Assembly (NCBI GenBank): GCA_964371355.1
Contig: CAYJMG010000003.1
Coordinates: 89,351-153,350, forward strand
DNA from: an uncultured Dehalococcoidia bacterium
GTDB lineage: Bacteria; Chloroflexota; Dehalococcoidia; DSTF01; JACRBR01
Direction of reading: 5' to 3'
DNA length: 64,000 nt
Numbering within the stretch: the first letter of the stretch is position 1; the number at the start of each line of letters is the position of its first letter. Under the pieces are notes generated by a model. That model saw only the letters and a program-made list of their open reading frames with translations. It was not told where the DNA came from and ran no database searches. Below, piece after piece: positions 7,541 through 41,747 of the stretch. The translations under genes were made by a program, and so were the position numbers.

Positions 7541-7543
7541 GCG

Positions 7544-8815: not shown

Positions 8816-9813
8816 CCACGGGCCCGCTGACGCACGTCGAGCGCGGGGACGCAGAGTACGAGCGGTTGGCCGGGCTCGAGGCGGAGTTCTGGCGCGCAGC
8901 ACGCGGCGAGTTCGGCGTCGTGGCGGGCGAGCGAGCGGGCATCGACAGCCCGATCGAGCGGTACACGAATCGGCGCTTCACGGGAGAGCCGCGCACGCAG
9001 TGGTTCGAGACGATCTCACGCCACGGGCAGTTCGAGCGCGGCCTGATCCTGGGCACGAGCGGGCTGGGACAGGACTCGCGAATTCTGGAGACGAATCCTC
9101 GGCTGCACGTTACGTTCTGCGACATCTCCGAGGGGAGTCTGACGCGCTGGGCTGAGGTGCTGGGACGGCGGTTCCCGGGGCGGGTCGACACGCGCGTTGC
9201 GGACCTGAACTTCGTGGAGCTTCCAGAGTCCTCCTACGACGTGATCTCGTCATCGAGCACGCTGCACCACGTGATCAACCTCGAGGACCTGGCGCGGCAG
9301 ATCAACCGGGCGCTGACGCCGGGGGGATTCTTCTTCCTCCAGGACTACGTCGGCGAGTCGTCGTTCCGCTTCGCGGAGAGCAAAAAGCGCCTGTTCGAGG
9401 AGCTGTACCAGCGCGACATCCGGCGCCAGCCCGGCAGGACGGGTGGCCTCGTCTGGCGGAATGAGGACCGCTCGCTGTTCAGCCCGTTCTGCGGTGTCCG
9501 GAGCGCCGACGTCCTGGGCGCGATGGCGGGAGCACTGAATCCGATCACCGTGCGGACGGCCGGGGCGATGACTTCGCTGCTGCTGTACGTGCGGCCGGCG
9601 GACGTGGAGACGATGCCTCGCCCCTCGAGAGCGCAGCGGGCCGAGACATGGCTGCGCCGCCGCGTGCCACTCCTGCGCCGGCGGACGACGCCGCTGGCCA
9701 TCGGCGAGTCATACCTGCTGGAGCTGCTGCTGTTGGACGAGCTGGTGTGCGACACGGGGCTGTGCGTGCCGTACAACGCGTTCGGGGTCTACCGGAAGCG
9801 CCCGGAGGCCTGA
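8812..9813 (+). CDS. Class I SAM-dependent methyltransferase
   Basis: ATGA overlap with the acyltransferase stop (ATG 8812, TGA 8813-8815). Methyltransferase fold motifs (ILGTSGLGQDS, LTPGGFFFLQDY). The track's longer N-terminus is an Arg-rich read-through. Confidence 0.7.
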   Translation: MTTGPLTHVERGDAEYERLAGLEAEFWRAARGEFGVVAGERAGIDSPIERYTNRRFTGEPRTQWFETISRHGQFERGLILGTSGLGQDSRILETNPRLHVTFCDISEGSLTRWAEVLGRRFPGRVDTRVADLNFVELPESSYDVISSSSTLHHVINLEDLARQINRALTPGGFFFLQDYVGESSFRFAESKKRLFEELYQRDIRRQPGRTGGLVWRNEDRSLFSPFCGVRSADVLGAMAGALNPITVRTAGAMTSLLLYVRPADVETMPRPSRAQRAETWLRRRVPLLRRRTTPLAIGESYLLELLLLDELVCDTGLCVPYNAFGVYRKRPEA

Positions 9814-29400: not shown

Positions 29401-30664
29401 CATCGAGCGCGCGGACGAGCGCATGTACGAGGAGAAGAAGGCCCGCAAGGCCAACGGCACCGGCCTTTCGCCGTCGCGCACCATCGGCGACGAGCGCGCG
29501 GCCCGCATGGTGGGCGAGCTGGTGCCGCTGCTGACCTCCAGCGGCACGCTGGACGAGAAGCTGAGACTGGTGGCCCACCGGCTTTCCGTCGGCGCTGGCT
29601 ACGCCGGCGTGAACTTCGACGTGCTGGGCGAGCACGACGGCCGCACCACCACCGTCAACCAGAACGCCTTCACCAAGGCGCCCGACGAGGTGATCGAGGC
29701 ATGGAACCGCCACCAGCGCTCGGGCGTGAACGGTCGCATCAGCGACCTGCTGCGCCAGACGCGCCGGGCGGTGATCATCGATGACATCGCCGCCAGCCAG
29801 CTCGTGACGGAGGAGCAGAAGAAGCTGCTGCTGTCGATCGGCATCGTCTCGGGCATCGTGGTGCCGCTGTTCGACGGCGACGCGATGGTTGCCACCATGT
29901 CGGTCGGGAGCAAGGACGTATCAGGGTTCTCCCAGAGCGACATGCAGTTCCTGACGGCGGTCGCCGGCCAGGTATCGGCCATCATCCGCATGGCTCGCCT
30001 GGTGGAAGACCTGCGGCGGGCAACGGGCCGGCTGGAGGAGGCGCGCGACGAGACGGTCATGTTCCTGGCCGAAGCGGCCGAGGCCCACACACAGAGCGGC
30101 GGCCGGCACTTCCTGGCCACGCGCGCCATCGCCGAGGCGATCGCCACGGAAATGGGGTTCGACGAGGCGAGCGTGCGGGAGCTGGGCCAGGCGGCGGCTC
30201 TGCACGACATCGGCAAGATCCACCTGCCCGACGCCCTGCTGTCCAGCCCGGAGCCACTATCGCCACGGCTCGGCATCGATCCCGCCGGGCAGGCGTGGGA
30301 GACGCTGCAGCAGCACTGTGCGCGCGGGCGCGAGTTCCTGGCCCGCGGCAAGGGATTCGAGCTGGCGGCGATGGCGGCGTACATGCACCACGAACGCTGG
30401 GACGGCGCCGGATACCCGCAGGGCATCGCCGGCGACGCCATCCCCATCGAGGCGTCCATCATCGCGGTGGCCGACAGCCTCGACGCGATGATGACCGAGA
30501 GCCCCTACCAGCCCGGCCGGTCGCTGGACGAGGCGGTCGCCGAAATCCTCGCCTGTCGCGGGACGCAGTTCCGCCCGGACGTGGTCGACGCGTTGTCCCG
30601 CCTGTACGAGCGGCGCGCGCTGCACGGCGTCTGGGCTCAGGACGAGGGCGCGGAGGCGGCCTGA
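23423..30664 (+). CDS. Giant multi-PAS c-di-GMP signalling protein: GAF, 13 PAS, GGDEF, GAF, HD-GYP (about 2413 aa)
   Basis: A single uninterrupted ORF. 13 PAS units each begin with a (E/D)xLRxSE(x)RFRxL linker. Intact GGDEF (RYGGDEFLV) with upstream DVDGMKAVNDTYGHQAGD. HD-GYP (ALHDIGKI ... HHERWDGAGYP). The ATG at 23423 is taken as start; the track's 23303 start and an ATG at 23453 are alternatives. Confidence 0.85.
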   Translation: MNHQQTGSQGMQGLAADAALRAVVERVSGSSGGEFYRRLAAELGHVFRASYAGVGELSLDGERVSLLGAWSRDPTSTPGDFAVAATPAEPVAQGEIRLHRERVRREFPADQRLQRLFAESYLGVPITDGRGDVLGLIELIADTPVRDADAATAIVMAMAERTATEMERDQAEAALRDSEMRYRALIEDSFHLVAEVVDERFIYASSGYTDTLGYPPEDLLGGSVFELIHEEDRKAAAGELRAMLSQRRAAHFTVRMRHEQGAWRWIECTARAFRTSGGEFRTTLFSRDVTDRVKAEAALRESEELFRSLIKDLRVGVALHDADARVLVCNDAALALLGLTEEEVLGKTSYDDSWRPTREDGTIIPPNERPVPLAIATGAPVRDIVYGVHRPATGEQAWVLASAEPQFDADGRVHRVICSLNDITARLMAEQELRASEGRFRFLAENSMDVISRYDADGRCVWMSPSVTPLTGYTPEEVVGHSLAEIFANNDDGLLAGALANVQEGIESFRTTFQVRHKDGHQVWMEATNKVVRDPETADVIEIQTSARDISGRKRAEDELRESEARFRLLAENSTDIIARYTPGGRCIWVSPSIRSVTGRDPEAVIGQIPGHQIHPDDREGAVEAMRALAAGEDQRTYTFRFQHVDGHYIWLEAHARAIRDAGGALTEVQTSSRDVTARMNAEDELRESETRFRLLAENATDMISRFALDGTRLWVSPSVQAITGYSQEETMQSGPVDNVHPDDVAALQTSFRAMVDGEASRRTTFRFRHRDGRYLWLEADGRAIRDEDGRVIEIQSSARDVTARKQAEEELRESEGRFRLLAHNSTDIIGRFSPDGRCVWISPSAQPITGYTPEEIVAAAPAKFVHPDDALEVWNAFNGMVESGATQRATFRFRHKDGHYIWLEANGRAVRDDTGQVVEIHSATRDVTARMEAEDDLRESEGRFRLLAENATDMIGRFTPDGVCLWVSPSVTAVMGYEPAELIGQNLREGIHPDDLAAISRGPDWERPDSVTSLMRYRHKAGHYIWIESTSNAVRNPQTGEVIEIHNTSRDVTARKAAEDDLRESEARFRLLAENATDVIGRYAMDGRCLWVSPSVTQVLGYAPDEIVGQEPFGHIHRDDLQDNMPFRPGATDLPDQWRTTLRYRHKDGRWVWLESTNRPARDPQTGAMLEVHSTSRDVTARIEAEEQLRASESRYRSLSESSPLGVYETTADGDATYFNERAIRMAGIGLDELKGWGWSRHVHPDDRPIVEAAWRAATQDGRECTIEYRLQTPRGIIWVSSHALPIRLPDGTVEKYVGTIDNITERREAQEAVRRSEQLFRATLESTADGIIVTRPLGELMYWNNRAAEMLAIPQTVLDTHSVQAFGRYIIENAREPEALVMAFSSLPSDEPVQAGTWTARDGRMFEAFAHPLHDPSGDLLRVWSIREVTEKHQSEMALRQSEDRFRSLAEHTTDLVLGICGPGVIDYASPNWSSAMGYNPEVMIGRNALDFVHPDDLPYTLEEFERAAEGDRAVCTMLRARHGQTGEWRWCELTANFYTSDMGEQRAVVTARDVTSRKQAEDALRESEERLRTVVNSVPLVLVAVDRDETVVLAEGQGLGLLGTPTRPLVGRSIAEELENHPQVLADMRRALAGDEVSTTTVFGRIVFEAHFRPIFDEHGQPNGMIGVAYDISARVEAERMLRDSEETARALLNAPTDGAVLVDREGTILAMNETAERRFREHASKQGVGPRDFIGTCVFDIFPPDLRAQRRARNDEVFRNGQRRHFEDERDGIWTDVTVDPIRDADGNIVRLAIFSRDVTDRKRDEAALRKRSRELEALNDYLEKTSAELERSQDELREASEQLAELLDAEQARSKTDTLTGALNHGTISEAISEAIAADVALAVAMVDVDGMKAVNDTYGHQAGDQVLLAVVQAITRPGAITGRYGGDEFLVALLNADRIEAEAYRDAVGAALQGAGVVDPESGARVPVVASVGIAMYPEDADTLKALIERADERMYEEKKARKANGTGLSPSRTIGDERAARMVGELVPLLTSSGTLDEKLRLVAHRLSVGAGYAGVNFDVLGEHDGRTTTVNQNAFTKAPDEVIEAWNRHQRSGVNGRISDLLRQTRRAVIIDDIAASQLVTEEQKKLLLSIGIVSGIVVPLFDGDAMVATMSVGSKDVSGFSQSDMQFLTAVAGQVSAIIRMARLVEDLRRATGRLEEARDETVMFLAEAAEAHTQSGGRHFLATRAIAEAIATEMGFDEASVRELGQAAALHDIGKIHLPDALLSSPEPLSPRLGIDPAGQAWETLQQHCARGREFLARGKGFELAAMAAYMHHERWDGAGYPQGIAGDAIPIEASIIAVADSLDAMMTESPYQPGRSLDEAVAEILACRGTQFRPDVVDALSRLYERRALHGVWAQDEGAEAA
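24712..26985 (+). repeat. Six tandem 375-381-bp direct repeat units (PAS-domain-encoding) inside the giant signalling gene
   Basis: Unit boundaries at 24712, 25093, 25474, 25849, 26224 and 26605. They all begin ga(g/a)ga(c/g)ga..tgcg.gagagcgag...cg.ttc.g.ctgct.gc.ga.aac. The encoded PAS units share RFRHKDGHYIWLE-type cores. Confidence 0.75.
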
Positions 30665-31935
30665 CGGGCCTCGGCCGGCTCCGGCGCGTCACTGCCGTGG
30701 CGGGTGAGGTTCACGGCCGCCCACACGGCGAACGTGACCCAGCCCCACACGAAGAACCACCACCCGTTGTCGCGCAGCCACTCCGTACCGGGGCCATCGA
30801 TGCCCGGGAAGATCAGGCCACCGCCGAGGAAGGCGATGATGACGTAAGAGGCCGTGTGGGCGGCAACGAGAGACGCCACGAGGAGACGCTGTCCGCTGAG
30901 GAGACCGAAGGGGACGATCCAGAGATAGTGGTAGGGCGCGCCGTCGTTCACCATCACGAAGAGCACCGCCAACACGCCGGCGATGGACGAATACAGCGGA
31001 GCGCGGCGGTAGATGAGCCAGGCCGCCGCGGCCAGCGTCGCCGCATATGCGGGCCACTCGCCGTGGTCGATCTCGAAGCGCAGCACTGTCGCCGATCCCG
31101 GCACGAATCCGAGGAAGCGGTCGATGATCAGCGGCGGCCCACCCAGCGTCGGGAACGGTGAGTAGTAGCCCTCCACGCCGTCGTACACCCGCAGCGGCGT
31201 GCTGCCGAACGCGAGCACGTACGCCAGGACCGCGCCCCCGACGACGGCGCCGGCCACGATGAGGTACTCCACCCTGCGTTCCGCGCGCAGCCTCGCCAAC
31301 AGCAACGGAATCAGGAACGCGGGCCACAGCTTCTGCAGGATGCCGAGCGCCAGCAATCCGGCCGACTGCAGGCGACTGCCCCCGGCGTTCGCCTCGGACA
31401 GGACGAAGACCGCGGAGACGGCGAAAAAGACCGAGATGACGTCGAACTGACCGTGGTAGATGGTCGCGAGGACGGGGAACGGGCACACGGCGTAAAGCAG
31501 TCCCGTGCGCACGCCCTCGGCCCTCCCCCACAGACGCGACGCCGCATGCGCGAGCAGCAACGCCGTACCCGCGTCGGCCAACGCCTGCGGGACACGGACC
31601 GCCGTGAAGAACGGGATGGGTGTCGCGTCGGCTATGAGCTTGCACACCGCCAGGATGTACATCTGGAACGGCAGGTACGGGTGCGGGAAGGGGCCGAAGG
31701 CGTAGATGTCGCGCCCGTGCAGGACCTCGTTCGCGGTTTTCTCGTAGTTGTTGATGTCGGTCAGCCAGAGGCCTTCGGGCTCGCGGTACACCAGCAGCGG
31801 CACGAACCGCACGATCAACGCGACCGCGGCGACCACCGCGAACTCGCGGCCCGGCGGCACGTCCGGCCGCAAGAACAGCAGCCACACGAAGGCGATGCTC
31901 GCCATCACGATCCACATGAACATGAAGAGAATCAC
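30637..31935 (-). CDS. Polytopic membrane protein, GT87/DUF2029-like (candidate lipid-linked-sugar-dependent glycosyltransferase)
   Basis: 432 aa with about 11 transmembrane helices and a DUF2029-like arrangement. The 3' end overlaps the giant gene's 3' end by 28 bp (convergent). Confidence 0.5.
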   Translation of the reverse strand: MILFMFMWIVMASIAFVWLLFLRPDVPPGREFAVVAAVALIVRFVPLLVYREPEGLWLTDINNYEKTANEVLHGRDIYAFGPFPHPYLPFQMYILAVCKLIADATPIPFFTAVRVPQALADAGTALLLAHAASRLWGRAEGVRTGLLYAVCPFPVLATIYHGQFDVISVFFAVSAVFVLSEANAGGSRLQSAGLLALGILQKLWPAFLIPLLLARLRAERRVEYLIVAGAVVGGAVLAYVLAFGSTPLRVYDGVEGYYSPFPTLGGPPLIIDRFLGFVPGSATVLRFEIDHGEWPAYAATLAAAAWLIYRRAPLYSSIAGVLAVLFVMVNDGAPYHYLWIVPFGLLSGQRLLVASLVAAHTASYVIIAFLGGGLIFPGIDGPGTEWLRDNGWWFFVWGWVTFAVWAAVNLTRHGSDAPEPAEARQAASAPSS

Positions 31936-31983
31936 GGCGGCAGTGTAGGTGACCGAACGCCGGTGTCGGCCCGATGCTTGACG

Positions 31984-33354
31984 TCAGCGCGCCCTGCGGT
32001 GCGCGCGCTGCTTGCGCCAGATCGAGAATCTCCGGCGCAGGCCGAAGCGCGCCTCGTAGTACGAGCGCGAGACGAACCAGTCGAGCGAATGCAGCGCGAT
32101 CGGCAGGCGCTGCTCGTTGCGGCGCACGGGCGAGCTTGACGCGCCGGTGCAGTAGTCGATGAGCGGCGCCAGCGTGCGCTCCCACGTGTACTCCTCGCGG
32201 ACCGCTTCGACGTTGCGGCGGCAGGCCGCGCGGTAGCCCGCGTCGCCCGCCAGCCGGTCGAGCGCGACCGTGAGCGCATCGAGGTCGCCCTCGGGTACCG
32301 CCGCGCCGAGCCCGCGCGCCTCGACCATCTCAGCCACCATGTCGCCCTGCGTGCAGACCAGCGGCAGGCCGGCCCAGAAGCAGTCCAGGTAGCGCACGCG
32401 GAACGAGAACCGCGTCTCCAGGCTGTCGTAGTACGTACAGACGGCGACGTCCGACTCCAACAGGTACTGCTGGGTGTCCTCGTTGTTCGCCCACGTGAAG
32501 TTGAAGAAGACGTGCGTATCCAGGATTCCCAGCTCGCGGCAAAGGTCGAGCGCACGCTGGGTCGTGCCGCCGCCCAGGCCCTGCAGCGTCTTCGCGCCGT
32601 AACTGTCCGGGTGCTCGGTGCCCATGAAGAACAACCGCATGTTCGGATGCCGGTCCTTCAGGCGAGCGACGGCACGGAGCAGCAGGCCCATGTCGTACCA
32701 GTCGACGATGATGCCGTTCCAGATCATCACGAAGTCGCCGCGCCCGATGCCCGGCCACACGCCGCGCAGCAGCGGCACGCCCGCCACGGGCGGCGCCGGC
32801 CGGATGCCGATGGGCGCGATGCGGATCAGACCCTCCAGCGTGGGATCGCTGTCGAACGCGCGGGGCGTAATGAGCCCGGCCGTGCCCATGATGCCTGCAA
32901 TGAGGTCGCGCTGCCGCACGTTCGAGCAGAGGATTGTGTCGGACGCGGCGATCTGCGTGATGAGATCGCGGCGCTTCATGTCGATCCAGGCGCGGCGGTG
33001 CGACTCGCCAGGGTCGCGCTTCGTCATCTCCACCCACTCCGTGATGAATGGAGTGAACAGGTCGAGCACGAGGCGCGTGTTCCCCGCGAACGGCAGCATC
33101 TTCAGTGGGAAGCGCGTGCTGATGACGATGTCGTGCTCGCGCGTCAGCCGCCCGATGTTCGCGCCGTCGTGGCGGGTGAAGGCGAAGGGCACGGTCGCCG
33201 GGTCGAGGTCGGCCGGCGTCGTGCGCGGGATGGCGAGCGTCACCTGCGCGCCCGGGACACGCTCCTGCAGCACCCGCGCCATGTGGTAGCTGCGGATGCC
33301 GCCGCTGGCCATCGTGCCGCCCACCGTCGTGTGGCCCAGGACGAGGATCTTCAT
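31984..33354 (-). CDS. GT4-like (GT-B fold) glycosyltransferase, paralog 1 of 3
   Basis: 456 aa with a C-terminal GT4-type Rossmann layout (IWNGIIVDWYD..., ADVAVCTYYDSLETRFSFRVRYLDCFWAGLPLVCTQGD, final YTWERT). The EX7E motif is degenerate. ATGA overlap with paralog 2. Confidence 0.6.
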   Translation of the reverse strand: MKILVLGHTTVGGTMASGGIRSYHMARVLQERVPGAQVTLAIPRTTPADLDPATVPFAFTRHDGANIGRLTREHDIVISTRFPLKMLPFAGNTRLVLDLFTPFITEWVEMTKRDPGESHRRAWIDMKRRDLITQIAASDTILCSNVRQRDLIAGIMGTAGLITPRAFDSDPTLEGLIRIAPIGIRPAPPVAGVPLLRGVWPGIGRGDFVMIWNGIIVDWYDMGLLLRAVARLKDRHPNMRLFFMGTEHPDSYGAKTLQGLGGGTTQRALDLCRELGILDTHVFFNFTWANNEDTQQYLLESDVAVCTYYDSLETRFSFRVRYLDCFWAGLPLVCTQGDMVAEMVEARGLGAAVPEGDLDALTVALDRLAGDAGYRAACRRNVEAVREEYTWERTLAPLIDYCTGASSSPVRRNEQRLPIALHSLDWFVSRSYYEARFGLRRRFSIWRKQRAHRRAR

Positions 33355-34715
33355 TGCGCCGCCGAATGCCGCGGGGCCAGTCGCGCTCGCACCCGCTGAC
33401 GCAGGCGGAAGCGCAGGAAGTGGTACGACTCCGACAGCAGCCAGTCAGCGCCGAGGCGTGCGATCGGTAGCAGGCGCGCATTGTGCAGCGCGGCCCGCGG
33501 TGCGCCCTCCCGGCAGTAGTCGATCAGCGGCCTCAGCGTCTCCTCCCACGCGAACGACGGCCGCAGCGCCTCGACGTTGCGCCGGCACCCTGCGCGGAAG
33601 GCGTCATCGGAGGCCAGCCGTCGCACCGCGGACACGATCGCGTCCACGTCGCGTTCGGGGACGCTGACGCCAAGCCCCCGCTTGTCGACCATCTCGGACA
33701 CCACGTCGCCGCGCGTCGACACGATGGGCAGTCCTGCCCAGATCAGGTCGAGGAAGCGCACGCGGAACGAGAACCGCGTCTCCAGGTTGTCGAAGTACGT
33801 CGCGACACCGGCGTCCGCGTCGGCCAGATAGCGCTCCGCGGTCTCGTCATCGGCCCAGCCGAAGTTGAAGAACACGTGCGTGTCCAGGATGCCCAGCTCC
33901 TGCGCCAGCTCGTACGCCGCTCGCACCGCCCCCCCGCCCATCCCCCGGAAGCGGCCGGCATCGAAGCTGTGGGGGTGCTCCGTACCCAGGAACACCAGCT
34001 TTACGTCGTCGCGCTCGCGGCTGAGCCGATGGACAGCGTGGATGAGCGACGCGGCGTCGTACCACTCGATGATGGTGCCGTTCCAGAGCAGCAGCTTGTC
34101 GTCGGGGCGGATGCCGGGCACCGCGCCCTTCACGCCGCCACGCGCGGGCAGTGGCCGCGGCCGCACGCCGTACGGAGCGACGGCCAGCACGCTGCCCAGG
34201 CTGGTGTCGCAGTCGTACGTGTGGGCGCTGATGAGGCCCAGCGTACCCATGATGCCGGCGTACAGGTCGCGCTGGCGCTCGTTCGCACACAGGACGAGGT
34301 CGGCGAGGGCGAGCTGCAGCAGCGTGTTCTTGCGCCGCGGCTCCAGCCAGATGTTGCGATACGGCGGGTCTTGGGTGTTCTTCGAAAGTTCGAGCATCTC
34401 GGTGTAGCCCGGCGTGTACATGTCCAACACGATGCGCGTATCCGACGCCGCGGGCAGCAGCTTCAACGGAAACTTGGTCGTCACCACCACGTCCGAGGAC
34501 TTCGTGAGCGAGATCATGTCGCGCTCTGAAGGACGCACGATCTCGAAGCACTCCCGCGCGGGGTCGACATCGCACGGGGTGTGCGGCGAGATGGCCAGCG
34601 TGACGCGGGCATCGGGGAGCTGCTGTTGGAGCACGCGGGCGACGTGGTAGGCCCGGATGCCGGGGGCGGCCATCTTCGTGCCGATAACGGCGTTGGTGAG
34701 GATGGTGACGCGCAT
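33351..34715 (-). CDS. GT4-like (GT-B fold) glycosyltransferase, paralog 2 of 3
   Basis: 454 aa from the ATG at 34715, with the same architecture as paralog 1 (RVTILTNAVIGTKMAAPGIRAYHVARVL ... ETRFSFRVRFLDLIWAGLPIVSTRGD). The start overlaps paralog 3's stop (TAATG). Confidence 0.6.
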   Translation of the reverse strand: MRVTILTNAVIGTKMAAPGIRAYHVARVLQQQLPDARVTLAISPHTPCDVDPARECFEIVRPSERDMISLTKSSDVVVTTKFPLKLLPAASDTRIVLDMYTPGYTEMLELSKNTQDPPYRNIWLEPRRKNTLLQLALADLVLCANERQRDLYAGIMGTLGLISAHTYDCDTSLGSVLAVAPYGVRPRPLPARGGVKGAVPGIRPDDKLLLWNGTIIEWYDAASLIHAVHRLSRERDDVKLVFLGTEHPHSFDAGRFRGMGGGAVRAAYELAQELGILDTHVFFNFGWADDETAERYLADADAGVATYFDNLETRFSFRVRFLDLIWAGLPIVSTRGDVVSEMVDKRGLGVSVPERDVDAIVSAVRRLASDDAFRAGCRRNVEALRPSFAWEETLRPLIDYCREGAPRAALHNARLLPIARLGADWLLSESYHFLRFRLRQRVRARLAPRHSAAQ

Positions 34716-36058
34716 TACTGGCTCAGCACCACGCCGACCGCACGCTGGGCCGCCCACTGCGCCCACGCCCCGGCCAGCATCGCCGTGCGCTTCCACTTCG
34801 GGAGGGCGCTGGTGCGCGGGTCGCGGCAGAACTCCACGAGGTCGCGCAGGGCGACCGTCCAGCTCATCTCCTTGTTCGCCTCGCGGATGTTGCGGCGGCA
34901 CTCCTCGTAGTAGTCGGGGTCGCCCAGCAGGCGCAGGATCGCGCCCGCGACGGCGTCGACGTCCTGCTGCGGGACGGCTTCGCCCATCCGCTTCTCGCGC
35001 ACCATACCGGCCAGCACGTCACCCTCCGTGCAGATCAGCGGCACCTCGGCCCAGAACACGTCGACGAACCGCGTGCGCAGCGAGAAGTGCGTCTCCAGAT
35101 TGTTGAAGTAGGTGCAGACGGCAAGGTCCGCCTCGAGCATGTAATCCTTCATCCGCTCGTACGGCACCCAGGCCATATCGAAGAAGACGGTGTTGTTGTA
35201 GAGCCCCAGCTCGTTAGCCAGTTTCAGGGACTCCATATAGCGCAGGCCCAGGCCCATGCCCTGCAGCCCGGGGTAGGCGCCACCCACGAACACCAGCTTG
35301 ATGTCGTCGCGCTCCTCCCGCACCTTCGCCATCGCCTGCAGCAGCGTGATGGGGTCGTACCACTGCAGAATGCCGCCGTTCCACATGATGAGCCTGTCGG
35401 TCTCCTTGATGCCCGCGTATACGCCCTTCAGCGCCGGCTTCCCCTTCGGGCCCAGGGGGTCGGGGCGGATCCCATGCGGCGCCACGCCGATCATCCGCTT
35501 CAGCGAGGGGTCGTCGTCGTAGGCGATGGGGTCGATCAGGCCGAGCGCGATCAGCGCGCCGATGTAGTAGTCACGCTGGCGATCGTTGGCGACGCTGATG
35601 TAGTCGGCGGAGACAAGCTCGGCGCCGACGCGGCGGCGGGCGCCGGCCATGTACGTCTCACGGTAGCGCTTGTTCTTGCGCAGGTGGTCCCGCGACTGCT
35701 CCATCCACTCCAGGAAGTAAACGGTGTAGTAGTCGAGCACGAACGTCTTCCAGGGGAAGGCGGCGATGGCGTGGGGCGGGTAGTCGTTGGCGATGATGAT
35801 GTCGTGCTGCATCATCAGCGCCAGCAGTGAGCGCCAGTTGTAGTAGGCGACGCTGTAGGGCAGGCGAGAGGGGTCGTCAGGCGGGTCGCTGCCCTTCTGC
35901 AGCGCGAGCGTGATCTCGGCCTCGGGCAGCTCCTGGGCCAGCACCTCGACCATGTGGCGGGTGCGGATGCCCGGGCTCGACATCTGGGCGCCAAAGGCCG
36001 ACCGGCTGACGACGAGGATGCGCTTCCGCCCGCTGCCGTTGCTCTTCGCCATCAGCAC
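34715..36058 (-). CDS. GT4-like (GT-B fold) glycosyltransferase, paralog 3 of 3
   Basis: 447 aa, more divergent, with the same layout (KRILVVSRSAFGAQMSSPGIRTRHMVEVL ... ETHFSLRTRFVDVFWAEVPLICTEGD). Confidence 0.6.
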   Translation of the reverse strand: MLMAKSNGSGRKRILVVSRSAFGAQMSSPGIRTRHMVEVLAQELPEAEITLALQKGSDPPDDPSRLPYSVAYYNWRSLLALMMQHDIIIANDYPPHAIAAFPWKTFVLDYYTVYFLEWMEQSRDHLRKNKRYRETYMAGARRRVGAELVSADYISVANDRQRDYYIGALIALGLIDPIAYDDDPSLKRMIGVAPHGIRPDPLGPKGKPALKGVYAGIKETDRLIMWNGGILQWYDPITLLQAMAKVREERDDIKLVFVGGAYPGLQGMGLGLRYMESLKLANELGLYNNTVFFDMAWVPYERMKDYMLEADLAVCTYFNNLETHFSLRTRFVDVFWAEVPLICTEGDVLAGMVREKRMGEAVPQQDVDAVAGAILRLLGDPDYYEECRRNIREANKEMSWTVALRDLVEFCRDPRTSALPKWKRTAMLAGAWAQWAAQRAVGVVLSQ

Positions 36059-36094
36059 CGCCCTGCCACCGGTTCGCGCTCCGCGGCCTCAGCG

Positions 36095-37189
36095 TCAGCG
36101 CGCCGGCCACTCGATGCGGGAGACAATGTTCGCCCAACTATACATATCGAGGAACGGCGCGGGTACGTTACCGGACTTGACGTGGCGGGGCGCCGCCAGC
36201 GCGGCCGCGAAAGCATCCCAGCCGTCCTCGAAGGACAGCAGCTCCCCGCAAACCGCGCGGTCAATGCCCTCCGCACCCATGGTCGTCGAAACGACAGGCG
36301 TGGCGCAGGCGATGCTCTCCAGGATCTTCAGCCGCGTCCCGCCGCCGCTCACGACCGGCACGGCCACCGCGTCCGCCGCGTTCACGTAGGGCGCCATCGC
36401 CGGGACCGCGCCCGTGTACCGGAGCCGCGGGTGGGAGTACAGCCATGCGGCCTCCTCGTGGTTCTTGCCCGCGACCACGAACTGGTAGTCGAGGCCCGCA
36501 CGGTCCAGCCGCGGCAGCAGCTCCTGGTGGATGATGCGCAGGGCTTCCCCGTTGGGGGCATAGCCGAGCTGCCCGAAGAACAGCAACATCTTCGTGCCCT
36601 CGCCGATCGCGAGCTGCTCGCGGACGCGCGCCCCCGCCGCAGCGTCAGGATGCACGACCGCAGCGTCGACGCCGTTCGGCACCAGCTGTATCTTCGCCGC
36701 AGGCACGCCGCACCGTCGAAAACGCTCGCCGTCCTCCGCCGAGACGACGAAGATGCTCGACCCAAGCCGCGCGATCAGCCGCTCGTACAGGGCGACAAGC
36801 CGCCAGGCGCGCGATCCCGTGCTGCGGAAGCGGTCGCCCTCGACGTTCGGCGCGTCGAGCACCAGCGGCACGCCCAGCCGCCGGGCGAGGTACGCGGCGT
36901 GCAGCCCCGGCCACGGATACTCCGTCACAATCACATCCGGCCGCTGGTCCCGCGCGATGACGAGCGCGCGGCGCAGGAAACCGGCATCGAGCACCTGGTG
37001 GCGGCGGCCAGGTGGAGTCGTCTCGTAAAGGCGCACCCGCAGGTCGTTCGCGGCGTTCGCCGGAGAGCGCGGCGTGAAGAGCAACAGCTCGTGCACGGGT
37101 GCCAGGTGCTTCAGGAGGTTGTAGGCGCGGACGCGCCCGCCATCGTCGGGCGGAAAGATCGGGTACGGCACGATCATCGCGATGTTCAT
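36095..37189 (-). CDS. Glycosyltransferase family 4 (glycosyl transferases group 1)
   Basis: 364 aa from the ATG at 37189 (MNIAMIVPYPIFPPDDGGRVRAYNL...). C-terminal GT4 motifs. ATGA overlap with the upstream GT2. The track's 108-codon N-terminal extension is an Arg/Ala-rich artefact. Confidence 0.8.
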   Translation of the reverse strand: MNIAMIVPYPIFPPDDGGRVRAYNLLKHLAPVHELLLFTPRSPANAANDLRVRLYETTPPGRRHQVLDAGFLRRALVIARDQRPDVIVTEYPWPGLHAAYLARRLGVPLVLDAPNVEGDRFRSTGSRAWRLVALYERLIARLGSSIFVVSAEDGERFRRCGVPAAKIQLVPNGVDAAVVHPDAAAGARVREQLAIGEGTKMLLFFGQLGYAPNGEALRIIHQELLPRLDRAGLDYQFVVAGKNHEEAAWLYSHPRLRYTGAVPAMAPYVNAADAVAVPVVSGGGTRLKILESIACATPVVSTTMGAEGIDRAVCGELLSFEDGWDAFAAALAAPRHVKSGNVPAPFLDMYSWANIVSRIEWPAR

Positions 37190-38121
37190 CTGCGCGCCCT
37201 CGGCCCCGTGCGGCCCATTACCCCGGCTACAAGGCCCTCGACGCGACCCAGCGCCTCGGCCGGGTTCCCCTGCGCGAGCGCCTTCAGGCTCTCGTACGCG
37301 ACGAGCCCGGGCTGCGCGGCGAGCGCGGTGATGCGGCGGACGCCCCGGAGACCGCGCCGGACGAAGCGCAGCCGGTTGCGCGCGAAGTAGTACGCCTGCG
37401 CCCGTGTCAGCCGGTTCGAGCCGCGCACGCCAGCCGCGGCCGACACCATATGCCGCACCGCGGGCCCTGGCGCGAGCCAGCACTCGGATCCGGCGAGCCG
37501 CACGCGCTCGCACAGGTCAGCATCTTCAAAGTAGTGAAAGTACGCCTCATCGAGGCCGCCGAGCCGCTCGAAGGCTTCGCGGCGGATGGCGATGGCGGCG
37601 CCCGTGATGAAGTCAACGGCCGCCTCCGTGCGAGGCAGCTCACGCGCACGGAAGCCCATGTGCCGCGTGTAGCCCAGCCAGCGGTTCAAGCGCCCGCCGG
37701 CGAACCACACGCGGCCGGGGTCGTCCTCGTACACCACCGGCAGGCCGGCGACGGCCGCCCGTGGATGCGTCTCGAACAAGACGGCCACGGTCTCCAGCGT
37801 CCCCGGCTCGATGGCGACGTCGTTGTTCAGCAGCAGCACGGCCCCTGCCCCGGCCGCGAAGGCCCCGCGGGCGCCGGCGTTACACCCGGCGGCGTATCCG
37901 CCGTTTTCGGCCAGCCGCACGATGCGCACGCCCGGGCAGGCGGAACGCGCTGCGCCTTCGTCAAGGTCGCCCGGCCCGTTCTCCACGAGCACCACCGCAG
38001 CCGGCCCGCCCCCCGCGGCGGCGATGGAGCGCAGGCAGGCAAGCGTATCGGCGAAGCCGCGCCAGTGCACGACAACGATGCCGAAAGGACCTGGCACCCG
38101 GCCTGAGGCAGAATCGCTCAC
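37186..38121 (-). CDS. Glycosyltransferase family 2
   Basis: GT-A fold with GIVVVHWRG, LVENGPGD, a DxD-like NNDVAIEP, and FHYFEDADLC. Confidence 0.8.
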   Translation of the reverse strand: MSDSASGRVPGPFGIVVVHWRGFADTLACLRSIAAAGGGPAAVVLVENGPGDLDEGAARSACPGVRIVRLAENGGYAAGCNAGARGAFAAGAGAVLLLNNDVAIEPGTLETVAVLFETHPRAAVAGLPVVYEDDPGRVWFAGGRLNRWLGYTRHMGFRARELPRTEAAVDFITGAAIAIRREAFERLGGLDEAYFHYFEDADLCERVRLAGSECWLAPGPAVRHMVSAAAGVRGSNRLTRAQAYYFARNRLRFVRRGLRGVRRITALAAQPGLVAYESLKALAQGNPAEALGRVEGLVAGVMGRTGPRARR

Positions 38122-38179: not shown

Positions 38180-38977
38180 GTGGGCAGAGACTACACACGC
38201 TTCCTGGTGCTCGGCGAGGGGCGCACAGGGTCCAACCTCCTCGTCCAGGCGCTGAACTCTCACCCTAACGTCGTGTGCTATCGCGAAGTGTTCAATTGGA
38301 CGCACAAACGGATCGACTACAACGTCGAAGGCTATGAGGATCTGAGCCGCAAGGATGTCCGGTTTCGGGCCGATGACCCGTTGCGCCTACTGGACGAGCG
38401 CATCTTCCGTGACTACCCCGCGGATATCGCGGCCGTCGGCCTCAAACTCCACTACGGCCACGCGTTTGGCTTCGCGGGTGTTGAGGAGGCACTCATCGAG
38501 GATCAGGCGCTTCGCGTGGTGCACCTCAGACGGCAGAACATGCTCCGTACATTGGTCTCACTCCGCGTCGCCGAGCAAACCGGCGTGTGGGAGCATGACG
38601 AAGACGCCTCCTTGCGTGTCCGCCTACGGCGGCTGGCCGGACGAGTCTCCACCCGCGTGAAGTACGGTGACCCGGCGCGTGTGCGCCTGACCTACGAGCA
38701 GTGCAACCAGTTCTTCATCGTGCACGCTCTCCAGGGCCAGCGTTATGACGAGCTCTTCGCGGCACATCCGGTCCTGCAGGTCAGGTACGAAGACCTCGCG
38801 AAGAACCGGGACAGCGTCCTGGCCGGCGTGCAGCGCTTCCTTGGTGTCCCGTTCGTCGACCTGAAGGTAACGTTGCAGCGCCAGTCCCGGACGCCCTTGC
38901 GAGAAACGATCGTCAACTTCGACGAACTCCGGGCCGCCTTCGCCGGGACCAGTGCGGAGGCACTGTTCGATGAGTGA
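38180..38977 (+). CDS. Sulfotransferase (Stf0-like, PAPS-dependent), paralog 1
   Basis: N-terminal 5'-PSB-like P-loop FLVLGEGRTGSNLL and a 3'-PB-like region (VVHLRRQNMLRTLVS). Followed by a tandem paralog with an 8-nt overlap. Confidence 0.65.
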   Translation: MGRDYTRFLVLGEGRTGSNLLVQALNSHPNVVCYREVFNWTHKRIDYNVEGYEDLSRKDVRFRADDPLRLLDERIFRDYPADIAAVGLKLHYGHAFGFAGVEEALIEDQALRVVHLRRQNMLRTLVSLRVAEQTGVWEHDEDASLRVRLRRLAGRVSTRVKYGDPARVRLTYEQCNQFFIVHALQGQRYDELFAAHPVLQVRYEDLAKNRDSVLAGVQRFLGVPFVDLKVTLQRQSRTPLRETIVNFDELRAAFAGTSAEALFDE

Positions 38978-39815
38978 CGGCTACGTCCGCTTCATCATCA
39001 CGGGGGACGCGCGTACCGGGTCGACGATGCTGGCCCAGGCGCTCAACACAAATCCGGCCGTGCGGAGCCTTCGCGAGATCTTCCACCATTGGAAGGATTT
39101 CCTGGACTACGGGGTCGAAGGGTACGACCCGTTCGACACGGAAGCGCTGCGGCTTCGGAACGACGATCCCGTGCGCTTCCTGAGAGAACGGATCTTTTGC
39201 GGCTATCCCGAGCAGATCGGTGCGGTCGGCTTCAAGTACATCTACGGCCAGATGTGGGGATACGATGACTTGACGGACTTCCTCAAGAATGACGCCGAAC
39301 TCCACGTCATTCACCTGAAGCGCCGGAACTGGCTCCGCGCACTCGTATCCGTGCGGATCGCCGAGCTGTCAAGCCGCTGGCTGGATGACGAGAGCGCAAC
39401 GCCGCGGCGAAAGCGGCGCTTGCACGTGCGCGCGGCCTCCGCACTGCTGCATCCCCGGCGAGCGCTTGGTGACCTGAGGCGCCGGATCGCGCCGCCCCCA
39501 CCGGCGCCCAAACCCAGGCTCACGCTCACGCCCGAGGAGTGCGAACAGTGGTTCAAGCGGACTCAGTGGGAGGTCGGGCGGGTCGATGAGCTGTTCGCGC
39601 GCCAGCCCAGGCTCGATGTCTTCTTCGAGGACATGCTCGCCGACCGTGCCGGTGCGTTCTCGGCCGTGCAACGCTTTCTGGAGGTCGAACCAGTGGACCT
39701 GGCGGTGACTTCGCGGCGGCAGAATCCAGAGCCGCTGAGCGAACTCCTGACCAACCACGACGATCTGCGCGCGACGTTCACCGGCACCGATTTCGTCTCG
39801 TTCTTCGACGAATAG
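38970..39815 (+). CDS. Sulfotransferase (Stf0-like), paralog 2
   Basis: FIITGDARTGSTMLAQAL P-loop, VIHLKRRNWLRALVS, and a C-terminus (DELFARQP...FEDMLADR...VQRFLEV) co-linear with paralog 1. Confidence 0.65.
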   Translation: MSDGYVRFIITGDARTGSTMLAQALNTNPAVRSLREIFHHWKDFLDYGVEGYDPFDTEALRLRNDDPVRFLRERIFCGYPEQIGAVGFKYIYGQMWGYDDLTDFLKNDAELHVIHLKRRNWLRALVSVRIAELSSRWLDDESATPRRKRRLHVRAASALLHPRRALGDLRRRIAPPPPAPKPRLTLTPEECEQWFKRTQWEVGRVDELFARQPRLDVFFEDMLADRAGAFSAVQRFLEVEPVDLAVTSRRQNPEPLSELLTNHDDLRATFTGTDFVSFFDE

Positions 39816-39968: not shown

Positions 39969-41747
39969 ATGGCAGGCCGGGTGGCGGCCCCGGCTCGGGA
40001 GCGAAGCACCGGCCCGGCGCCGCTCAACTGGGACGAGGCATCACCGTCCGCGATCGCGGACCTCGCGGCGCGCGCCCTCCGCTACTGGCCGCTCGCGCTC
40101 GTAGCCCTTGTGGCCGTGGCCAGCCGGCTGCGTTACATCGCGGGCTTCGACGGCGCGTACGGCTCCGGCGACGCGCACCTGCTGCTCACGAAGGCGCTCT
40201 TCATCGAGCGCGGCGACCTCCGCCCCGATGCGTCGCTGGGCGTGAGTTCCAACATCTTCGCCACGCCCCCGCTGGTCCCGATGCTGCTCGGCGGCTTCGC
40301 GCGCGTCACCACGGTCCCGGTCGATCACGCGCCTCTCATCCTGGGGCCGCTGGTCACCGTCGCCGGGCTGCTGGCGCTGTACGCCGTCGCAGCCCGCGCG
40401 TTCGATCGCACCGTGGCGATAGCGGGCGTGCTGCTGGTGGCACTGCTGCCGCGCTTCTCGTTCGACTCGACCGAGCCGGACAAGGTGGCATACGTCCTGA
40501 GCTTCTTCCTCATCGCGCTGTTCTTCCTGTACGAGGGGCAGCGACGGCCCGCACTGCTGCTGGCCGCGGGCGCGTTCATGGGGCTCAGCGTCTTCTCGCA
40601 CACGACGGCGTACCTGTTCCTGCCCGTGTACCTGCTGTCGCACGTGGCGCTCTCGCGCGGCCGCATGCGGAAGGTGCTCTCGCCGTACTTCCTGGCCTCC
40701 TGCGCGATCGTGCTGGCCTTCCTGGCCGCCTATTCCGCCCTCGACGCGCGCTTCGACCCGACGAGCGACACGACGGCGACCGGCGCGGCACTGGAGCCCG
40801 GCGCCGGCGCGGGCCGGCCGACAGAGGACGCCCGCCTCCCGGAGTCCACCCCTGCCGGGCGGACCCGCCGCTTCGTGCCCCAGGTCGTCGACGAGTACAT
40901 AGACAACGTGAGCAGGCTGGCGCGCGACGGCTTCCAGCGGAGCGCGGGCGACCTGTACCTCGACGGCATCCGCGCGCAGATCCTCGACCCCGTGTATGTG
41001 TTGGCGATCGGCGGATTCTGCGTCGCGGCGGCGCTGGCGCTGCTGCGGCGGCGGATGGAGGCGGTGCCGCTCCTGCTGTGGATGATGATCGTGACCGCCG
41101 GATTCGCCATGCAGTATCCCGCCGCCTCGCACACCAGCCGCTACCCCTCGTACGTCACGCCGGTGTTCCTGATCATGGCCACGTTCTTCGTGGTCTGGGC
41201 GGCTCGCCAGATCGCGGCGCGGGCCGGCGCGCGCGAGGCGATGGCACTGGCGCTGGCCGCGCCCTTCGTGGCCTACGCTGCCTTCTCGTACGTGACGGCG
41301 CCCGACCCGGGGCTGCGCAAGCTCTTCGCTGGCCACCACGAGCTAGCCGCCTACGTCTCCGACAACGATCTGCTAAGTGAGGATCGGCAGATCCTGTATC
41401 TGGGGTGGCCGTCGTTCACGTTCGGCCTCGCCAGGAGCGAGGCTGATGTCGATTGGCTGCACAGCTTCGGCTGGCGGCGCGTATCGCTGGCCGGGTACGA
41501 CGCCGACTATGTCGCCCAGAATAACGTCCGCTACTACGCCTACGACGACCTCACCGACGACTACTTCGGCTCGGCGAAGCAGGTGCTGGCAAACCTCCAG
41601 CGTGACTTCGAGATGCGTCCGGTGTTCACGTACTGCACCGCCGGCTCGGCGGCGTCGCACGCGGAGGCGGACGGCTGCGCCGGCCACGTCACGCTGTACG
41701 AAGTGGGCGCGCGGAAGGCGCAGCCGGCGGACGCCGTCACTCCTTGA
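39969..41747 (+). CDS. GT-C fold membrane glycosyltransferase (PMT/ArnT-like, polyprenyl-phosphate-sugar dependent)
   Basis: 593 aa from the ATG at 39969. About 11 transmembrane helices, with an early loop containing the DG/acidic motif (IAGFDGAYGSGDAHLL) typical of GT39/GT83-like enzymes, and a large C-terminal soluble domain. Confidence 0.6.
   Translation: MAGRVAAPARERSTGPAPLNWDEASPSAIADLAARALRYWPLALVALVAVASRLRYIAGFDGAYGSGDAHLLLTKALFIERGDLRPDASLGVSSNIFATPPLVPMLLGGFARVTTVPVDHAPLILGPLVTVAGLLALYAVAARAFDRTVAIAGVLLVALLPRFSFDSTEPDKVAYVLSFFLIALFFLYEGQRRPALLLAAGAFMGLSVFSHTTAYLFLPVYLLSHVALSRGRMRKVLSPYFLASCAIVLAFLAAYSALDARFDPTSDTTATGAALEPGAGAGRPTEDARLPESTPAGRTRRFVPQVVDEYIDNVSRLARDGFQRSAGDLYLDGIRAQILDPVYVLAIGGFCVAAALALLRRRMEAVPLLLWMMIVTAGFAMQYPAASHTSRYPSYVTPVFLIMATFFVVWAARQIAARAGAREAMALALAAPFVAYAAFSYVTAPDPGLRKLFAGHHELAAYVSDNDLLSEDRQILYLGWPSFTFGLARSEADVDWLHSFGWRRVSLAGYDADYVAQNNVRYYAYDDLTDDYFGSAKQVLANLQRDFEMRPVFTYCTAGSAASHAEADGCAGHVTLYEVGARKAQPADAVTP

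Follow-up and report, generated by a model that had tools for sequence, protein, structure and literature searches.

ST1 and ST2, two adjacent genes in the 64-kb window (the whole stretch of DNA analysed here), probably encode active PAPS-dependent carbohydrate O-sulfotransferases that are translationally coupled, belong to a conserved glycan cluster of the Dehalococcoidia type and sulfate different positions. This reading, to which a probability of about 60 % is given as a whole, rests on homology, fold, residue conservation, gene overlap and synteny. As enzymes they represent a familiar type; the polymer of the cluster is undescribed.

A tandem pair with an 8-nt overlap

Both open reading frames were recovered at the coordinates given in Table 1. 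BLASTP aligned their products end to end with 43 % identity over 282 columns (E 5e-70), far beyond chance, which agrees with the tandem paralogy and the co-linearity up to the C-terminus described in the sequence-only reading. ST1 ends in GAT GAG TGA, and the overlap is indeed 8 nt long because the ST1 stop codon occupies 38975-38977 and the ST2 ATG 38970-38972. The longest possible ST2 frame opens at GTG 38952 and would give a 26-nt overlap and a 287-aa protein. This start was rejected in favour of ATG 38970, because a GGAGG lies 9 nt upstream of the latter, the 281-aa form is present in public collections, from which the 287-aa form is absent, and the gene calls on identical metagenome contigs place the start there.

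The sequence GAAGAGG, which derives from the conserved C-terminal ...EEAFFD codons, was seen at the equivalent spot in relatives. All four of their sequence-checked tandem junctions (L004, L010 twice, L013) have the 8-nt ATGNNTGA/TAG junction, and gene-call coordinates give an 8-nt overlap for the tandem genes of L016 too. As a component of the overall reading, ST1 and ST2 are probably translationally coupled through this overlap and through the ribosome-binding site of ST2 inside the end of ST1. The downstream GT-C gene, with GGGGGAG preceding its ATG, is probably co-transcribed with the pair. A promoter/terminator consensus scan of positions 37800-40200 gave no promoter-like site and no terminator-like site between ST2 and the GT-C gene; because it gave no promoter, the operon structure is one that we infer. 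The scanned interval has one terminator-like site, on the minus strand inside ST1 (38925-38910), a number that does not exceed the 1.2 expected from shuffled sequence.

Table 1 Features of the sulfotransferase locus and its surroundings in the window
Feature	Position	Strand	Remarks
ST1	38180..38977	+	265-aa sulfotransferase, GTG start
ST2	38970..39815	+	281-aa sulfotransferase, paralogue of ST1, ATG start
8-nt overlap ATGAGTGA	38970..38977	+	ST2 start and ST1 stop; putative translational-coupling junction; sequence
GGAGG	38956..38960	+	Candidate Shine-Dalgarno sequence of ST2, within ST1 3' end, 9 nt 5' of ATG
ST1 R15-T16-G17-S18	38222..38233	+	Predicted 5'-phosphosulfate-binding (PSB) loop; conservation, alignment with Stam10 R13/S16
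ST1 E36	38285..38287	+	Candidate catalytic base; conservation, aligns with Stam10 E34
ST1 R118...S127	38531..38560	+	Predicted 3'-phosphate-binding (3'-PB) element; conservation, aligns with Stam10 R108/S117
ST2 R15-T-G-S18	39012..39023	+	Predicted 5'-PSB loop
ST2 E36	39075..39077	+	Candidate base; H39 after it matches Stam10 H37
ST2 R118...S127	39321..39350	+	Predicted 3'-PB element
ST2 residues 147-173	39408..39488	+	ST2-specific Arg-rich helical hairpin, much shorter in ST1
GT-C (PMT_2) membrane glycosyltransferase	39969..41747	+	Downstream, co-directional; Pfam PMT_2 1.8e-10
Divergent glycosyltransferase operon	30637..38121	-	GT-C (PMT_2), three GT1-type paralogues, GT4, GT2; Pfam
Methyltransferase 1 of 3	41737-42432	-	Pfam Methyltransf_11
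Methyltransferase 2 of 3	42436-43119	-	Pfam Methyltransf_11
Methyltransferase 3 of 3	43212-44639	+	Pfam Methyltransf_11
Detached module	5040..9813	+	ABC-2 permease, ABC ATPase, hexapeptide acyltransferase, Acyl_transf_3, methyltransferase; Pfam
Ketosynthase	45635-47038		Lone, FabF-type, beyond TfoX and DinB genes

Motifs, fold and family membership

The P-loop-like motifs noticed earlier, EGRTGSNLL in ST1 and DARTGSTML in ST2, each occupy residues 13-21. In both models, R15-T-G-S18 lies between strand E6-12 and helix H18-26, forming a strand-loop-helix PSB motif that would hold the 5'-phosphosulfate. The second basic motif (HLRRQNMLRTLVS and HLKRRNWLRALVS, residues 115-127) had been read as the 3'-phosphate-binding element, and this assignment fits: it contains R118 and S127, which are placed at the junction of strand E112-117 and helix H121-134, as in a 3'-phosphate-binding strand-turn-helix, and which would hold the 3'-phosphate. 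Among 47 homologues, no variation occurs at R15, G17, R118, N120 or S127, and conservation of at least 90 % is seen at T16, S18, E36 and K89; E36 is conserved to at least 90 % in alignment A1 and invariant in alignment A2. The 47-homologue alignment also gave a conserved C-terminal motif of the Chloroflexi ST family, LRRQNPxPLxxLIxNYDELRxAFAGT. The conserved cofactor and catalytic residues are retained in every tandem copy examined. Neither ST1 nor ST2 looks like a pseudoenzyme, because both keep every invariant residue of this kind; both are apparently intact and active. AF2 secondary structure gives helices H147-160 and H162-173 in ST2 and only H145-153 in ST1, and residues 138-187 of ST2 include 13 K/R.

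Both proteins have the sulfotransferase alpha/beta fold, and each has Stf0 as one of its three closest structural neighbours (16-21 % identity in the structural alignments). Overall, the interpretation given in the sequence-only reading is supported. The HMM searches that it had proposed placed ST1 (39.9 bits) and ST2 (28.5 bits) above the 27-bit gathering threshold of Pfam PF13469, Sulfotransfer_3. The Pfam Stf0 domain (PF09037, threshold 22 bits) matched ST1 partially, over residues 111-235 (25.8 bits), and did not match ST2 at E<=1. The label Stf0-like stood at the level of the superfamily only: with the NCBIfam Stf0 equivalog model NF047724 (cut-off 400 bits), ST1 scored 21.3 bits and ST2 gave no match. 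The genes associated with the sulfolipid-1 pathway of Stf0 are pks2, papA1/2 and mmpL8, families that are absent from the 64-kb window. Orthology with Stf0, the mycobacterial trehalose 2-O-sulfotransferase (PDB 1TEX), was rejected on these two grounds, the score of 21 against 400 bits and the missing sulfolipid gene context. A profile of the ST family matched Stf0 with E 3e-6, in two fragments. A literature search gave no confirmation of the catalytic base of Stf0.

The closest characterised relative is Stam10/Sam10, a NodH-like oligosaccharide fucose-2-O-sulfotransferase of saccharomicin biosynthesis (PMC13291958), the structure of which (PDB 9VKI, deposited as 'LPS sulfotransferase NodH') was the sole solved structure found for the pair by sequence. 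The family profile matched it with E 3.8e-29 (profile positions 6-238 against chain residues 20-235); the single-sequence matches (ST1 2.6e-7, ST2 4.8e-5) are limited to the N-terminal half, outside which similarity is low. Stam10 is similar in size (a chain of 264 aa, about 20 tag residues included) and shares with the pair the Arg-type PSB loop (R-S/T-G-S), the spacing of 9 residues between R and S of the 3'-PB element and a Glu that follows strand 2 (E34, corresponding to E36 of ST1 and ST2). Its residues R13, S16, S17, E34, H37, Q87, R108, S117 and H155 are essential, those to which the conserved catalytic residues of the pair map being inactive as alanine mutants, and E34 touches the acceptor 2-OH in a docked model (PMC13291958). 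The equivalents of R13, S16, E34, R108 and S117 are conserved in both ST1 and ST2, and S17 corresponds to N in ST1 and to T in ST2. Only ST2 retains H37 and Q87 (as H39 and Q94), ST1 having N39 and H94, and the substrate-specific H155 is replaced by F178 in ST1 and by W in ST2. To judge from these alignments, the pair appears to share the catalytic machinery of Stam10, but not its acceptor site, because the cofactor-side residues and E34 are kept and the acceptor-side residues differ. Within the overall reading, both proteins would be members of the sulfotransferase superfamily from its NodH/Sam10/Stf0-like branch, which is of the Arg type (RxGS).

The gene cluster and its conservation

An NCBIfam scan of ten neighbours in the cluster returned no equivalog-level names, the GT4-type enzymes being weakly similar to GlcNAc-phosphatidylglycerol synthase and MshA. 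A PDB sequence search found no relatives of the GT-C enzyme (39969-41747) or of the 475-aa methyltransferase. Genes for PAPS synthesis (sat/cysDN, cysC) were not found in the 64-kb window. The exporter module lies about 21 kb from the rest of the cluster in the window. A 2453-aa PAS-GGDEF-GAF-HD protein adjoins the cluster.

Clusters with three GT1 genes, GT4, GT2, ST, GT-C, methyltransferase and acyltransferase genes and an ABC-2 exporter are conserved in Dehalococcoidia-type MAGs and lie near housekeeping genes, citrate synthase among them, in several lineages. A scan of genome contigs, using a 19-sequence alignment and one narrow peptide pattern, yielded only 7 loci, to which the genome of the window itself did not belong; the closest syntenic MAGs are Dehalococcoidia. 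Synteny of the ST/GT arrangement was seen in L004, L013 and L016, and synteny of the divergent glycosyltransferase operon in L001, L004, L011-L013 and L016. An orthologue of the downstream GT-C gene follows the ST genes in L004, L010, L013 and L016. Orthologues of the methyltransferases occur in L004, L006, L008 and L013, and L016 has Pfam-annotated methyltransferases at the same place. In L011/L012, the exporter module lies immediately next to the GT/ST cluster, and the permease, ATPase, hexapeptide acyltransferase and methyltransferase of the window are 58, 75, 54 and 45 % identical to the proteins of that module; the Acyl_transf_3 protein of the window matches three genes in L013. In L016, the cluster is fully contiguous over about 18 kb and has a module with matching Pfam families beside it.

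Relatives carry one to three ST copies (a single one in L006, L008 and L011). In unbootstrapped NJ trees, their tandem arrays mix at least four apparent paralogue groups, ST1 and ST2 falling in different ones. Single polypeptides in which a GT2 domain is fused to two or three ST domains of the ST1/ST2 family were also found. The ST2 lineage is most likely the more widespread and the ST1 lineage the more variable. The family is not confined to glycan clusters, since some members are orphans among unrelated genes (loci L014 and L017, proteins P0028 and P0038). No description of the cluster was found in the literature on Dehalococcoidia sulfotransferases, and a Shark Bay mat study reports no PF13469 hits in its Chloroflexi MAGs.

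Proposed role and alternative explanations

At the inner face of the cytoplasmic membrane, cytoplasmic GT4, GT2 and GT1 enzymes would build a glycan attached to a lipid carrier, and there the glycan would be O-methylated, acylated and sulfated; an ABC-2 (Wzm/Wzt-like) transporter would then export it, and the GT-C enzymes would further glycosylate or attach it outside. ST1 and ST2, as presumed cytoplasmic, PAPS-dependent enzymes, would act before export, with E36 deprotonating the acceptor hydroxyl for in-line sulfuryl transfer. A glycan acceptor is favoured because of the flanking glycosyltransferases and methyltransferases, the synteny, the adjoining exporter in relatives and the GT2-ST fusions. 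Distinct specificities are favoured because of the different tree groups, the mixed arrays, the contrast of N39/H94 with H39/Q94 and the 147-173 hairpin of ST2. Most likely, then, each enzyme adds sulfate at a position or residue of its own in a lipid-linked surface glycan.

Stf0 acts on trehalose on the way to SL-1 and NodH on a lipochitooligosaccharide, and the acceptor might likewise be a membrane glycolipid instead of a lipid-linked polysaccharide destined for export. The structural proximity of both proteins to Stf0 would fit, as would the lack of an initiating phosphoglycosyltransferase in the cluster and the GT4-type enzymes, which often make glycolipids and show the weak similarities given above; a review classes NodH and Stf0 with the glycolipid sulfotransferases (PMC11625862). 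Five cytoplasmic glycosyltransferases and two GT-C enzymes suggest a longer glycan, however, and the orthologous, polysaccharide-type exporter and acyltransferases next to the cluster in L011/L012, with the matching module of L016, also speak for export. With the Stf0 equivalog model failing and the lipid-tailoring genes of the Stf0 pathway absent, a glycolipid acceptor is considered unlikely. The two copies could also be redundant isozymes that raise gene dosage, or one could be the non-catalytic partner in a heterodimer. Tight coupling would give roughly equimolar synthesis, Stf0 is reportedly a dimer with its substrate at the interface, and polypeptides with two or three ST domains exist. 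Yet the identity of only 43 %, the different paralogue groups, the intact set of invariant residues in both proteins, the differing acceptor-side residues and insertion, and the relatives in which one copy suffices make this improbable.

That the pair tailors a secreted oligosaccharide natural product, as its closest characterised homologue does, instead of a cell-envelope glycan is very improbable. The cluster holds no PKS, NRPS, deoxysugar or aglycone genes, the sole ketosynthase being the lone FabF-type one; its GT-C enzymes and ABC-2 exporter are typical of envelope glycans; it is syntenic near housekeeping genes across MAG lineages; and the H155 of Stam10 is not kept. Sulfation of tyrosines in a secreted protein, in the manner of TPST or RaxST, appears the least plausible option, since matches to TPST are limited to the PSB loop (profile positions 14-43), the full-length homology is to a carbohydrate sulfotransferase, and both the neighbouring glycosyltransferases and the fusions with GT2 suggest sugar acceptors.

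Some wall and O-polysaccharide pathways depend on ABC transporters and include extracytoplasmic GT-C decoration, those of the streptococcal Rgp/GAC polysaccharides for example, and the cluster resembles them in combining GT4/GT2 assembly in the cytoplasm with an ABC-2 exporter and GT-C enzymes; sulfation is not known from such pathways. NodH of Sinorhizobium meliloti (a Nod-factor GlcNAc-6-O-sulfotransferase, taken together with the COG4424 'LPS sulfotransferase NodH' group), compared here by name and description, sulfates a lipid-linked oligosaccharide in the cytoplasm; no nod genes lie near ST1 and ST2, and the acceptor is presumably different. The review places NodH in PF13469 because of its RxG PSB motif (PMC11625862). 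To judge from the accessible parts of the respective reports, sulfotransferase genes also lie among glycosyltransferase and export genes in sulfated-polysaccharide clusters, such as the synechan xss cluster of Synechocystis, with several sulfotransferases (PMC8205485), and those for the sulfated capsules of Vibrio sp. KMM 8419 and Cobetia marina (PMC11641403, PMC11766843); KpsS of Mesorhizobium loti, cited in the review (PMC11625862), is counted with them. The present cluster differs in coming from another phylum (Chloroflexota MAGs), in its ABC-2 exporter accompanied by GT-C enzymes and several methyltransferases, and in its arrays, which are overlapping tandems of one ST family. Unlike Stam10, which belongs to an antibiotic gene cluster, ST1 and ST2 lie in one of the envelope-glycan type.

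More tentatively, and with somewhat less than even confidence, the locus may represent an undescribed conserved envelope-glycan system of Chloroflexota (Dehalococcoidia type), in which variously combined, coupled arrays of one to three ST genes, or GT2-ST-ST-ST fusions, would provide lineage-specific sulfation of a methylated, acylated, ABC-2-exported glycan. Sulfate esters would give the wall or surface polymer its anionic charge, as phosphate does in teichoic acids, and c-di-GMP may control the system via the adjacent PAS-GGDEF-GAF-HD protein.

Significance

Bacteria rarely carry sulfated glycans on their surface, such glycans are little understood, and the acceptor has been established for very few of the carbohydrate sulfotransferases of bacteria. 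The locus offers a compact case, with two intact paralogues that differ in acceptor-side residues and a cluster conserved across uncultured Chloroflexota; the contiguous cluster of L016 is suited to heterologous expression. Were the regiospecificities distinct, the ST family would supply new catalysts for the sulfation of glycans, and sulfate could, besides phosphate or uronic acids, charge the envelope polymers of Chloroflexota. Annotation by a standard pipeline would equally read "sulfotransferase", and 13 homologues of ST1 at JGI carry the name 'LPS sulfotransferase NodH'. The family comprises about 2,500 cluster representatives at E<=1e-30.

The sulfotransferase gene pair

ST1 and ST2, the two neighbouring predicted sulfotransferase genes, were found where the sequence-only reading had placed them, as two open reading frames overlapping by 8 nt. 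The 3' end of ST1 reads GAT GAG TGA and the ATG of ST2 occupies 38970-38972, which gives the overlap ATGAGTGA. A longer ST2 frame (287 aa) from GTG 38952 was rejected: ATG 38970 is preferred because GGAGG (38956-38960) lies 9 nt 5' of it, because the 281-aa form occurs in public protein collections and the 287-aa form is absent from them, and because this start was also chosen in independent gene calling on identical metagenome contigs. A GC3 of coding type (0.80-0.82) was seen only in the two + strand frames of the locus; the numerous antisense ORFs in the window (68% GC) are compositional artefacts. The paralogy suggested earlier was borne out by BLASTP (43% identity from end to end, E 5e-70), and the P-loop-like and second basic motifs quoted at that stage are present at residues 13-21 and 115-127 of both proteins.

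Features of the window and of three related loci (L; other positions refer to the window)
Feature	Position	Strand	Remarks
Ada-type methyltransferase/AraC regulator	1807-3276
ABC-2 permease, ABC ATPase, hexapeptide acyltransferase, Acyl_transf_3, methyltransferase (MT)	5040-9813	+
Signalling protein, 2453 aa	23303-30664	+	~10-12 PAS, then GGDEF, GAF, HD (HD_5); directly upstream of glycan cluster
Divergent operon facing ST pair	30637-38121	-	PMT_2-type GT-C, three paralogous GT1-type, GT4 and GT2 glycosyltransferases (GTs)
GT1-type trio	31984-36058	-	~450 aa each
ST1	38180-38977	+	GTG start, 265 aa
ST2	38970-39815	+	ATG start, 281 aa
PMT_2 GT-C	39969-41747	+	592 aa; 3' of ST2, own Shine-Dalgarno sequence
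Three Methyltransf_11 MTs	41737-44639		after GT-C gene
Methyltransf_11 pair	41737-43119	-	~230 aa each
Dockerin proteins	47122-49095; 50617-52617	-	large; C-terminal dockerin type I
Tad/Flp pilus genes	60216-63052	+	TadE-like, TadG-like, RcpC/CpaB; window end
Polytopic membrane protein, ~485-492 aa	L013 8467-9924; L011 8340-9818; L016 8418-9878	-	between GT2 and STs

Family assignment and active-site residues

Both proteins exceed the gathering score of 27 for Pfam Sulfotransfer_3 (PF13469; ST1 39.9 bits, ST2 28.5 bits), and ST1 also passes PF00685. The sulfotransferase part of the earlier Stf0-like assignment stood; as to the Stf0 part, ST1 matches the Stf0 domain PF09037 (25.8 vs 22 bits, residues 111-235 only). 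Orthology to Stf0 was rejected because ST1 reached 21 bits against the cut-off of 400 of the NCBIfam equivalog for Stf0 trehalose 2-sulfotransferase and ST2 did not match it. A search of 5.8 billion proteins yielded 50 relatives, 13 of them named "LPS sulfotransferase NodH" by JGI, and the pair belongs to PF13469 and to the NodH-like (COG4424-named) group. When 1.84 billion representatives were searched exhaustively with a profile, 2,503 proteins matched at E<=1e-30, a number that rose to 10,438 at E<=1e-10.

Of the solved structures, sequence searches detected 9VKI alone (ST1 2.6e-7, ST2 4.8e-5). A profile of 47 family members matched it with an E value of 3.8e-29 over profile positions 6-238; Stf0 (1TEX) matched the same profile at only 3e-6, in two fragments. 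9VKI is the structure of Stam10, which is 84% identical to Sam10 and served in its place. Sam10 sulfates a fucose of saccharomicin, an antibiotic of 17 sugars, at O-2 and requires at least a heptasaccharide (PMC13291958).

Across 47 homologues, F8, R15, G17, G87, R118, N120, and S127 are invariant and T16, S18, E36, K89, Y203, E204, Q235, N246, and E249 at least 90% conserved. Arg instead of Lys in the 5'-phosphosulfate-binding loop is a hallmark common to Stf0 and NodH (PMC11625862). In HMMER alignments to 9VKI, R15/S18/N19 of ST1 correspond to R13/S16/S17 of Stam10 and R118/S127 to R108/S117; E36, N39, H94, and F178 correspond to E34, H37, Q87, and H155. Activity of Stam10 is abolished by alanine at R108 or S117, abolished or markedly reduced by substitution of R13, S16, or S17, and abolished by each of the alanine substitutions of E34, H37, Q87, and H155; E34 touches the acceptor 2-OH in a docked model (PMC13291958). 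On this mapping, ST1 and ST2 retain all of the cofactor-side machinery together with the putative base. They were thus shown to be homologous sulfotransferases with intact predicted cofactor-binding and catalytic residues, and their assignment as such enzymes is very probably correct.

The two paralogues differ in their acceptor-side residues: ST1 carries N39/H94, as do most family members, and ST2 carries H39/Q94, as does Stam10; H155 is kept in neither. Residues 147-173 of ST2, which come after the 3'-phosphate-binding helix in the region where the family alignment varies most in length, were modelled as an Arg-rich helical hairpin (pLDDT about 85-92), the place of which is taken in ST1 by a single short helix of low confidence. 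The pair shares with Sam10/Stam10, NodH, and Stf0 the character of small, soluble, Arg-type carbohydrate O-sulfotransferases, but falls outside the Stf0 equivalog and does not share the acceptor site of Stam10.

Tandem arrays and clusters in relatives

Two metagenome contigs (L001, L002) carry identical copies of the locus; the nearest named genomes with relatives are Dehalococcoidia/Chloroflexi MAGs.

Sulfotransferase loci compared, with paralogue groups from the NJ tree
Locus	STs	Group	Neighbours
Window	2, tandem	A (ST1), B (ST2)
L004	2, tandem	B, D	PAS-GGDEF, GT1x3, GT4, GT2, GT-C, MT; fully syntenic
L013	2, tandem	C, B	GT-C, GT1x3, GT4, GT2, 485-aa membrane protein, GT-C, four MTs, three Acyl_transf_3
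L016	2, tandem		PAS protein, GT1x3, GT4, GT2, 486-aa membrane protein, GT-C, MTx3, Acyl_transf_3, hexapeptide x2, ABC ATPase, ABC-2 permease, MT; all contiguous
L010	3, tandem	D', A, D	then GT-C
L011/L012	1	A (L011)	joined to GT2, GT4, GT1x2, ABC-2 exporter module
L006, L008	1	B	GT1s, MTs
L003, L005	1	B
L015	1, distant member		GT1, two PMT_2 genes, other sulfotransferases, amino-sugar genes
L014, L017	1		orphans among unrelated genes

All sequence-checked tandem junctions (window, L013, L010 twice, L004) are 8-nt ATGNNTGA/TAG overlaps, and gene-call coordinates give the same for L016. The cause of the overlap is that the ATG of the next copy lies within the conserved C-terminal end ...FFD(E/A/D)-stop; the Shine-Dalgarno sequence of that next copy (GGAGG or GAAGAGG) is formed by conserved (E/A)EA codons just upstream. 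The start and Shine-Dalgarno sequence of ST2 are thus placed inside ST1. At least four paralogue groups were separated, provisionally, since the NJ tree carries no support values; the ST1/ST2 separation was found again in a larger tree, and every copy placed in the paralogue tree retains the catalytic residues.

Among the best profile matches are single polypeptides, up to 1219 aa long, with several ST domains: GT2 plus three (P0054) or two (P0058), three plus Glyco_tranf_2_4 (P0059, P0079), and two (P0055, P0056). These resemble the overlapping arrays in fused form; the GT fusions link the domain with glycan synthesis, and the multi-ST proteins show that joint action of several copies is a recurrent design. 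The ST genes (window 38001-40000) have a GC content of 0.646 at their GC3 of 0.80-0.82, and their neighbours are higher (0.70-0.715; GC3 0.86-0.94). This and the mixed arrays of relatives may reflect exchange of the ST module between lineages.

Gene neighbourhood and proposed function

The pair is embedded in a conserved cluster of GT, MT, acyltransferase, ABC-2, and GT-C genes. No terminator-like site was found between ST2 and the GT-C gene at 39969. The module at 5040-9813 is separated from the glycan cluster by ~21 kb of unrelated genes; since four of its genes are orthologous to the L011/L012 exporter module (permease 58%, ATPase 75%, hexapeptide acyltransferase 54%, MT 45% identity), the window contains one conserved system in two separate parts. 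A module of the same Pfam families adjoins the L016 cluster. No PAPS-synthesis gene occurs within the 64-kb window.

PAPS is cytoplasmic, and ABC-2 systems export finished lipid-linked glycans (Wzm/Wzt pathways), from which action on a lipid-carried glycan before export would follow. In the reading preferred here, ST1 and ST2 would use PAPS in the cytoplasm, with E36 as the base, to sulfate different positions of a glycan built on a lipid carrier, and the GT-C enzymes would act once it has been exported. A probability of about 0.6 is given to this model in full, with the lipid-linked surface glycan and the distinct regiospecificities as parts of it. That the acceptor is instead a glycolipid seems unlikely, and less likely still is that the two proteins are redundant or form a heterodimer with one silent partner. 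Natural-product tailoring by the pair is very improbable, and protein tyrosine sulfation even more so.

The annotation of the pair is sound and was read correctly. It comes with a useful comparative story and contains nothing that would surprise a specialist. The more interesting possibility, put forward as a tentative hypothesis, is a modular sulfation array acting on an undescribed Chloroflexota envelope glycan; no description of this cluster was found in the literature searched.

The PAS-GGDEF-GAF-HD protein is syntenic in L001, L004, and L016, and its C-terminal 740 residues show 72% identity in L004; L011/L012 are also flanked by a GGDEF gene, and in L013 the cluster borders directly on citrate synthase, where no PAS-GGDEF gene intervenes. 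This neighbour hints at c-di-GMP control of glycan production.

The polytopic membrane protein of several relatives has no Pfam match and no homologue in the window (tblastn), and L004 lacks a counterpart between its GT2 gene and the STs. The protein could represent an additional component of GT-C-like or polymerase type. The GT1-type proteins, without a Pfam match in their N-terminal half, match each other's orthologues (36-50% identity), and the Methyltransf_11 pair cross-matches at 55-60%; both sets are additional tandem paralogues in the cluster. One dockerin protein combines a glucose/sorbosone dehydrogenase with thrombospondin-3 repeats and the other has a PQQ-like beta-propeller, and their dockerin domains suggest secretion. 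The 50-54 kb region has a lower GC content (0.63). Genes of the DinB family occur at several places in the window.
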